NCBI RefSeq assembly: GCF_003334785.1 | Contig: NZ_QOWV01000094.1 | Length of the DNA: 231 bases | Reading direction: 5' to 3' (one strand) | DNA from: Escherichia coli | Lineage (GTDB): Bacteria; Pseudomonadota; Gammaproteobacteria; Enterobacterales; Enterobacteriaceae | Made by a program: the position numbers and the translations under genes | The notes under the pieces: generated by a model | Database searches by the model: none | What the model was told of the DNA's origin: nothing | What the model saw: the letters and a program-made list of their open reading frames with translations, nothing else | In this document: in pieces, positions 1 to 231 of the stretch | Numbering within the stretch: position 1 is the first letter of the stretch | How the letters are laid out: every line of letters starts with the position of its first letter

Positions 1-15
1 ATTTTCCCGTTAACA

Positions 16-41
16 CGCGGGCAAGTAATCCGGGGCCCGCG
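16..41. repeat. GC-rich inverted repeat / stem-loop: CGCGGGC (16-22) pairs with GCCCGCG (35-41), 12-nt loop aagtaatccggg
   Basis: Seven consecutive G:C pairs verified base by base. Lies 10 nt downstream of the minus-strand small-ORF stop codon. Not followed by a U-tract on either strand, so it is not a canonical intrinsic terminator. Confidence 0.45.
26..41. repeat. copy 1 of a ~15-nt direct repeat motif TAATCCGGGGCCCGCG (minus-strand reading CGCGGGCCCCGGATTA)
   Basis: First 8 nt (TAATCCGG) are identical to copy 2 at 141-148; the GC-rich remainder matches with 1-2 indels. Spans the loop and 3' arm of the 16-41 hairpin. Confidence 0.4.
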
Positions 42-51
42 ATACCACGCT

Positions 52-129
52 CTATCGGGCGGGACGGCGCCGGTGCTCAGAGAGCAGCCTTTCCAGCTCA
101 GCGATGCGAATGAGGTATTTCTGACTCAT
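52..129 (-). CDS. small ORF, 25 aa hypothetical peptide MSQKYLIRIAELERLLSEHRRRPAR (ATG at plus 127-129, TAG at plus 52-54)
   Basis: ATG-initiated ORF in the same minus frame as the upstream ORF. GC by codon position across 52-129 is about 65/42/69%. The N-terminal 13 codons use common enteric codons and read like an amphipathic helix. The C-terminal tail uses rare codons (AGG, CGG, CCC, CGA) and an amber stop, and no Shine-Dalgarno is visible upstream (aaaaacggccATG), so it may be a fortuitous ORF or a gene remnant. Confidence 0.3.
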   Translation of the reverse strand: MSQKYLIRIAELERLLSEHRRRPAR

Positions 130-138
130 GGCCGTTTT

Positions 139-144
139 TATAAT
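139..144 (+). promoter_or_regulatory. perfect TATAAT hexamer on the plus strand with no convincing -35 partner
   Basis: Plus 139-144 reads TATAAT. At 15-18 bp spacing the upstream hexamers (tatttc, atttct, ttctga) match TTGACA at 3/6 or less, and no TG extended -10 is present (ttt precedes). It is the reverse complement of the AT-rich stretch used for the minus-strand call, so the two are not independent. Confidence 0.15.
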
Positions 145-155
145 CCGGCCCGGCG
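141..155. repeat. copy 2 of the direct repeat motif TAATCCGGCCCGGCG (minus-strand reading CGCCGGGCCGGATTA)
   Basis: See copy 1. Spans the loop and 3' arm of the 130-150 hairpin and lies 4 nt from the TAA stop of the upstream minus-strand ORF. Confidence 0.4.
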
Positions 156-159
156 TTTT

Positions 160-231
160 TTACAACATTGTCAGTGCGTTAAGGCGGGATGTTTTTGGCT
201 GACGCCAGTCCAGCTTATCGAGGAGCATTGC
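160..231 (-). CDS. 3' end of an ORF of unknown function (5' part lies beyond the window edge); C-terminal residues ...AMLLDKLDWRQPKTSRLNALTML, stop TAA at 160-162
   Basis: Minus-strand frame open from position 231 to TAA (plus 160-162). No Cys and no very rare codons. GC by codon position across 160-231 is about 54/38/58% (pos1/pos2/pos3), a coding-like pattern for this frame pair. An in-frame ATG at plus 226-228 means the ORF could instead start inside the window as a 22-aa peptide; this cannot be resolved without upstream sequence. Confidence 0.4.
   Translation of the reverse strand, partial: AMLLDKLDWRQPKTSRLNALTML

Follow-up and report, generated by a model that had tools for sequence, protein, structure and literature searches.

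Insertion sequences of the IS66 family are organised as three genes, tnpA-tnpB-tnpC, the last of which encodes the DDE transposase (PMC6778807). The copy with which we compared our locus is an intact ISEc47 element of 2,541 bp on plasmid NZ_CP025918.1 (73098-75638; L001 in the following), whose tnpC product of 537 amino acids starts with MSQKYLIRIAELERLLSEQAEAL... / MSQKYLIRIAELERLLSEQAEALRQKDQQ..., has EAPAPSRPIE as residues 186-195, scores 451 bits against the NCBIfam model transpos_IS66 (cut-off 180), and is assigned three Pfam domains: LZ_Tnp_IS66 at residues 60-130, zf-IS66 at 138-182, and DDE_Tnp_IS66 at 196-486 (2.8e-97). The terminal inverted repeats of IS66 elements reportedly begin with GTAAGCG, and an 8-bp target-site duplication is said to accompany them. 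From other systems it is known that hairpins occluding a start codon, together with translational coupling, occur in insertion sequences and phages, as in the fold-back inhibition of IS10/IS50 and in MS2, and that truncated transposase derivatives of Tn5 act as inhibitors.

The DNA analysed here is a stretch of 231 nucleotides, called the window throughout, which is identical to positions 1879097-1879327 of the chromosome of the E. coli ETEC strain TW10722 (NZ_CP035841.1; L002:4944-5174). The first-pass annotation had drawn attention to an unrecognised ATG-started ORF, and translation of the window places it on the minus strand at 129..52, with 25 codons (MSQKYLIRIAELERLLSEHRRRPAR) and the stop codon TAG. 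When the whole window was used as a megablast query, ISEc47-type matches were obtained in 3,019 of the 5,426 complete E. coli genomes, with underlying features annotated as 'IS66-like element ISEc47 family transposase' and 'IS66 family accessory protein TnpB', and every best match was split into two pieces that span 736 bp for the 231-bp query. The window can be divided as follows:

160..231, minus strand: 3' end of tnpB, its last 23 codons (...AMLLDKLDWRQPKTSRLNALTML) with the stop codon TAA at 162..160, identical to the annotated WP_000624688.1 (L001, L002).
160..165, minus strand: TTGTAA, the proposed '-35' hexamer, made up in the tnpB reading frame of TTG, the final Leu codon, and the TAA stop.
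130..159, minus strand: tnpB-tnpC spacer of 30 nt with the ATTATAAA block and a putative hairpin (based on pair counts and folds as well as on alignments A1 and A2).
137..142, minus strand: TATAAA, the proposed '-10' hexamer, located by its letters in the loop of the putative spacer hairpin, 7 nt (AACGGCC) before the ATG.
76..129, minus strand: tnpC codons 1-18 (MSQKYLIRIAELERLLSE), 100% identical to L001:3581-3634, the start of WP_001744949.1.
74..77, no strand: deletion junction with the 4-bp microhomology TGCT, from BLAST against intact ISEc47.
52..75, minus strand: out-of-frame tail HRRRPAR plus TAG, the true frame being A187-PAPSRPIE195 by comparison with intact tnpC.
1..76, minus strand: remainder of the tnpC pseudogene (RefSeq EXA02_RS09240, L002:3964-5019), with TnpC residues 187-211 in the window.
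65..72, no strand: the palindrome CGGCGCCG, in the tnpC codons for A-P-A-P and present also in the intact ISEc47 copy compared.

In BLAST against the intact element, window positions 1-77 correspond to L001 3001-3077 and positions 74-231 to L001 3579-3736, both at 100% identity; the two blocks overlap by TGCT, and 505 bp are absent at the join of L001:3077 with L001:3579 (junction sequence in the window: GGCGCCGGTGCTCAGAGAGC). The deletion extends from within codon 19 of tnpC to codon 186/187 and leaves codons 1-18 in place. Since 505 is not divisible by three, the codons for A187-P-A-P-S-R-P-I-E195 are read as H-R-R-R-P-A-R-stop. The true-frame codons GCA CCG GCG CCG, read out of frame in this way, account for the rare codons for Arg and Pro, for the amber stop, and for the GC-rich, palindrome-bearing block. 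With this deletion, both N-terminal domains of the transposase, the leucine zipper and the zinc finger, are lost and the catalytic domain is out of frame; beyond the junction, the tnpC frame is still open for 351 codons that cover the DDE domain. With a probability of about 95%, the sequence comparison thus points to a decayed ISEc47 copy in which the 25-aa ORF consists of tnpC codons 1-18 followed by seven codons frameshifted by the 505-bp deletion. The 505 bp were lost between two TGCT tetranucleotides, presumably through illegitimate recombination or replication slippage, and codon 19 is now linked to codon 187. Translation from the normal tnpC start would then end at the TAG after seven foreign codons, and the 25-aa stub, if made at all, would use whatever signals normally express tnpC and probably has no function of its own.

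A 36-nt probe across the junction (window 58-93) was searched in the complete E. coli genomes (5,426) and in 72,556 plasmids, and it was found in one of the genomes at a single place, the TW10722 chromosome NZ_CP035841.1 (assembly GCF_018884385.1), and in 0 of the 72,556 plasmids; as the junction is carried by this one assembly only, it might conceivably be an assembly error. The junction is not widespread, being absent from the 5,425 other complete E. coli genomes and all plasmids, and since it is limited to one genome, both halves match intact copies at 100% identity, and 351 codons remain open, the deletion appears to be recent and strain-specific. A 25-aa product that depends on a junction unique to one genome has no evolutionary history.

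These data bear directly on the original proposal that the ORF is a missed, free-standing small-protein gene, encoding an amphipathic helix with an Arg-rich tail and transcribed from its own leaderless promoter. An ORF, a start codon in good context, and a promoter-like geometry are indeed all present, and window positions 77-129, which contain the 5' stub, have no RefSeq annotation: EXA02_RS09240, listed as the pseudogene 'IS66-like element ISEc47 family transposase, missing N-terminus', reaches window position 76, and as the pseudogene call spans the larger fragment only, the 5' stub can fall into an annotation gap. The ATG is moreover a genuine start codon of a real gene, namely the annotated tnpC start in intact ISEc47. 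However, 18 of the 25 residues belong to the 537-aa ISEc47 transposase, whose N-terminus they form, and the other seven form a frameshifted tail that was made by the deletion. The codon-position GC counts that had been taken to support the frame do so for codons 1-18, which look coding (0.56/0.28/0.67), and fail for the last seven codons, which look non-coding (1.0/0.86/0.71), in line with the earlier reservation about the C-terminal third, now explained by the out-of-frame reading after the deletion. Conservation of the whole ORF in frame is likewise not seen across relatives, in which only codons 1-18 are kept, as part of the 537-aa TnpC. The peptide matched no NCBIfam family, and the length of the ORF carries no weight, because an ATG-started ORF of at least 25 codons is present in 58% of mononucleotide shuffles of the window. 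We therefore regard a free-standing small gene as highly improbable; measured against the intact element, the 25-aa ORF is a by-product of pseudogenisation in a mobile element. The fallback suggestion of a decaying gene had been the right one, the gene being an IS66 transposase gene with a frameshifting deletion of 505 bp, and the descriptive elements of the first-pass annotation are likewise accurate: the position of the ORF, the 8-bp palindrome CGGCGCCG at 65-72, the letters TTGTAA at 165..160 and TATAAA at 142..137 with 17 nt between them, and the absence of a Shine-Dalgarno (SD) sequence within ATTATAAAAACGGCC directly 5' of the ATG.

The window contains two further ORFs of 22-24 aa. As separate genes we rejected the minus-strand ORF 228-160, which is the tail of tnpB, and the plus-strand ORF 128-202, which is antisense and without support. 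An Rfam scan of the window gave only one match, at chance level (snoR113 at 17.6 bits, with a gathering score of 47 and E = 0.2). The feature is a defective copy of a known and very common insertion sequence and has little biological weight. For the hunt for small ORFs it holds a caution: when a gene has suffered a deletion or frameshift, its 5' stub mimics a small gene, as it has a real start codon and a good N-terminus, and codon statistics that shift midway along the ORF are the tell-tale sign of such a stub.

The element to which the stub belongs covers L002:3934-5969 (2,036 bp; chromosome positions 1878087-1880122) and has the gene order tnpA, tnpB, tnpC. Full TnpB scores 119 bits against the NCBIfam model IS66_TnpB (cut-off 50), and the tnpA product matches the NCBIfam models of IS66 TnpA below their cut-offs. 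The intact ISEc47 and the window copy have the tnpB end, the spacer, and the tnpC start in common, with 100% identity over both window halves, and they are alike in having GTAAGCG at both element ends and 8-bp flanking direct repeats, CGTTTATA/CGTTTATA in L002 and CGGCACTG/CGGCACTG in L001. The presence of both GTAAGCG-type ends together with a direct repeat indicates a genuine insertion that suffered the internal deletion afterwards. By its gene order, terminal repeats, and target duplication, the copy belongs to the IS66 family, but in comparison with the intact element it lacks 505 bp of tnpC (codon 19 to 187), is frameshifted, and has lost the leucine-zipper and zinc-finger domains; it does not encode the full-length intact transposase of an autonomous element and is a pseudogene copy in RefSeq. 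The TW10722 chromosome has eight places that match the window, the plasmids NZ_CP035842-44 match too, and for each TW10722 replicon the best-matching record shows the two halves in the intact arrangement, 736 bp apart. Mobilisation in trans is therefore conceivable: as the copy keeps its terminal inverted repeats, target duplication, tnpA, and tnpB, it could be mobilised by intact copies in the same genome.

The same intact copies, together with the 351 open codons that include the DDE domain, could also be taken to favour a regulatory role of the deletion derivative, in which the stub or a restart product, such as one starting at the in-frame GTG of window 18..16, would inhibit the intact transposase in a manner resembling the truncated inhibitor forms of Tn5. 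Against this stand the single occurrence of the allele, which is confined to one genome and gives no hint of having been selected or of having spread, the absence of an SD sequence before the GTG, and the fact that the 18 kept residues end short of the leucine-zipper domain (Pfam residues 60-130). Such a role is very improbable, and we hold to the reading of a decayed copy with a probably functionless stub.

The surroundings of the insertion in TW10722 (L002:1-3800 and 5900-9400) look like a genomic island, with apparent island genes for hha, an inovirus-type Gp2, zinc-ribbon proteins, a frameshifted GIY-YIG nuclease, a truncated ShlB/FhaC-family protein, and a toxin-activating acyltransferase.

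In relatives with 73-95% DNA identity (ISEc23, ISKox1, and other variants), the TnpC N-terminus is kept as protein; their TnpC products start with MSQKYLIRIAELE, MSQDYLARITALE, or MNHDYLARIAALE, and the starts differ by a frame-preserving indel of 21 nt. This conservation at the protein level identifies the tnpC N-terminus as real coding sequence. The 21-nt indel comprises the seven residues RLLSEQA in the N-terminal coiled-coil region of TnpC (alignment A1, columns 148-168), and it parts ISEc47 and ISEc23 from other relatives (L001:3581-3560 versus L004, L006, and L007). Other decayed tnpC copies were also seen. At L005:367-588 (NZ_CP024860.1), the annotated 'hypothetical protein' WP_000080227.1 is a 73-aa 5' stub of an IS66 tnpC, and at L089:1289-1894 (NZ_CP024244.1), an IS66 tnpC pseudogene has a different internal deletion plus an internal stop and is hemmed by IS3-family insertions. 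Like the window copy, both are a 5' stub or an internally deleted form of the same transposase gene located after tnpB, but their breakpoints differ from those of the window copy, and the 73-aa stub was long enough for annotation, whereas the 25-codon stub of the window was left unannotated.

The only item here of some wider value is the expression of tnpC in the ISEc47 clade, in which the gene has no SD sequence. A literature search on IS66 tnpC expression or a tnpC promoter found nothing, with matches that were mostly genome surveys, and PMC6778807 gives the general tnpABC organisation of IS66 and nothing on tnpC expression. The geometry noted at the outset could be that of a weak internal promoter of the ISEc47/ISEc23/ISKox1 clade, with TTGTAA and TATAAA 17 nt apart, that would give a leaderless tnpC mRNA with its first base at the A of the ATG and, in the window copy, a leaderless stub mRNA. 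The hexamers, with a spacing of 17-18 nt and 6-7 nt to the ATG, are kept in 11 of 11 spacer variants, including L050 with its entirely different stem arms, and this would suit a promoter, as would the lack of an SD sequence in the clade. The same can be said of TATAA, which is invariant among variable spacer bases: ATTATAAA is invariant in 10 of the 11 distinct spacer variants, with neighbouring spacer bases that vary, and the most divergent, L050, keeps TATAA at a similar distance to TTGTAA and ATG as the other variants. For a sigma-70 promoter one expects 16-18 nt between the hexamers and, in the -10, an A at position 2 and a T at position 6. The hexamer pair of the window has 9 of 12 consensus matches, a spacing of 17 nt, and 7 nt to the ATG, but its -10 has no T at position 6; a sigma-70 promoter and terminator consensus scan of the window found no sites, as it requires this T and refuses TATAAA with its final A, and in all variants the -10 ends in A or C, never T. 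The invariance of TTGTAA, in turn, is explained by coding, as it is the last codon plus the stop of tnpB. We therefore consider a leaderless promoter unlikely, and two further points against it come from the structure of the spacer and from the sister clade.

A candidate hairpin at or including the SD-less tnpC AUG (window 130-150, minus strand) was also seen in L003, L006, L007, L008, L013, L020, L049, and L050. In the window, its arms are GGCCG at 150..146 and CGGCC at 134..130, so that the stem ends directly at the tnpC ATG. The loop AUUAUAAA is invariant in all but L050, and the arms co-vary among ISEc47, ISEc23, ISKox1, and L050:

ISEc47: 5' arm GGCCG, 3' arm CGGCC.
ISEc23: 5' arm TGACCG, 3' arm CGGTCA.
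ISKox1: 5' arm ATAACCGC, 3' arm GCGGTTAT.
L008: 5' arm TGATC, 3' arm GGTCA (one G-U pair).
L050: 5' arm CCCGTTG, 3' arm CAGCGGG.

The helix was independently predicted by RNAalifold, and 79% of the cells pair in the stem, a share that falls to 14-53% once the partners are shifted by 1-3 columns. Across the 11 related sequences, the covariation score was 0.198 versus 0.109 ± 0.028 in shuffles, a value that 3 of 500 shuffles attained; the number of stem pairs changed on both sides was not significant. In single-sequence folds, the tnpC AUG lies in or against the stem, with z-scores of -2.3 to -4.9 in four relatives; the hairpin of the window's own variant is weak (z = -1.2). The evidence for the spacer hairpin is thus suggestive, and it falls short of proof, given the kinship of the sequences and the small number of independent compensatory events.

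If the RNA of the spacer has a conserved structure, this would imply a transcript that runs through the spacer, i.e. a tnpABC message, and not one with its 5' end at the ATG. Compensatory changes between the arms point in the same direction and speak against the leaderless promoter, as they indicate that a spacer-containing RNA is under selection, and such an RNA would be absent from an ATG-started transcript. Most likely, tnpC of the ISEc47 clade is translated from polycistronic RNA, with the hairpin restricting independent initiation: the tnpABC transcript would cross the spacer, the hairpin would occlude the SD-less AUG, and ribosomes finishing tnpB could open the hairpin and thereby free the tnpC AUG. 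In comparison with IS10/IS50 fold-back inhibition and MS2, the putative stem of the ISEc47 clade includes or abuts the AUG of an SD-less gene that lies closely behind another ORF; the conserved loop AUUAUAAA is not required by a simple occluding hairpin, and the IS66 case is drawn from sequence alone. It is possible, and we suggest this tentatively, that the spacer block with its co-varying arms, its invariant AUUAUAAA loop, and the SD-less AUG is an undescribed control element of the IS66 transposase. If so, it could be a hairpin that couples tnpC translation to that of tnpB, or an internal promoter for a leaderless mRNA, and under either mode the 25-aa ORF would still be a deletion by-product. 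A read-through fusion of TnpB and TnpC, for which the TAA and the ATG are in frame at a distance of 30 nt (10 codons), was considered and rejected, as relatives have spacers of 29 and 31 nt; the in-frame arrangement of the tnpB TAA and the tnpC ATG in ISEc47 (window 130-162) is, judged from these spacer lengths, probably coincidental.

In the ISEc8-like sister clade (L056-L088), the tnpB-tnpC spacer has about 17 nt with a canonical SD sequence, GAGGA or GGGG (AAGTGAGGATATG or AATGGGGTTATG). This clade has neither the hairpin nor the TATAAA block, and its 17-nt spacer with a normal SD sequence (GAGGA) offers no room for a -10, which is a further argument against the leaderless promoter. To judge from their spacers, the two sister IS66 clades appear to use different signals for tnpC initiation.

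The region around the tnpC start has also been hit by other elements. In ISEc47-like copies at L018:846-985 and L053:312-450, we observed two independent nested insertions, each with an IS66-family end (GTAAGCG…CCGTATTGA) no more than 25 nt from the tnpC start; one follows codon 5, and the other is in the hairpin loop just after ATTATAAAA. These nested insertions may reflect a local target preference.
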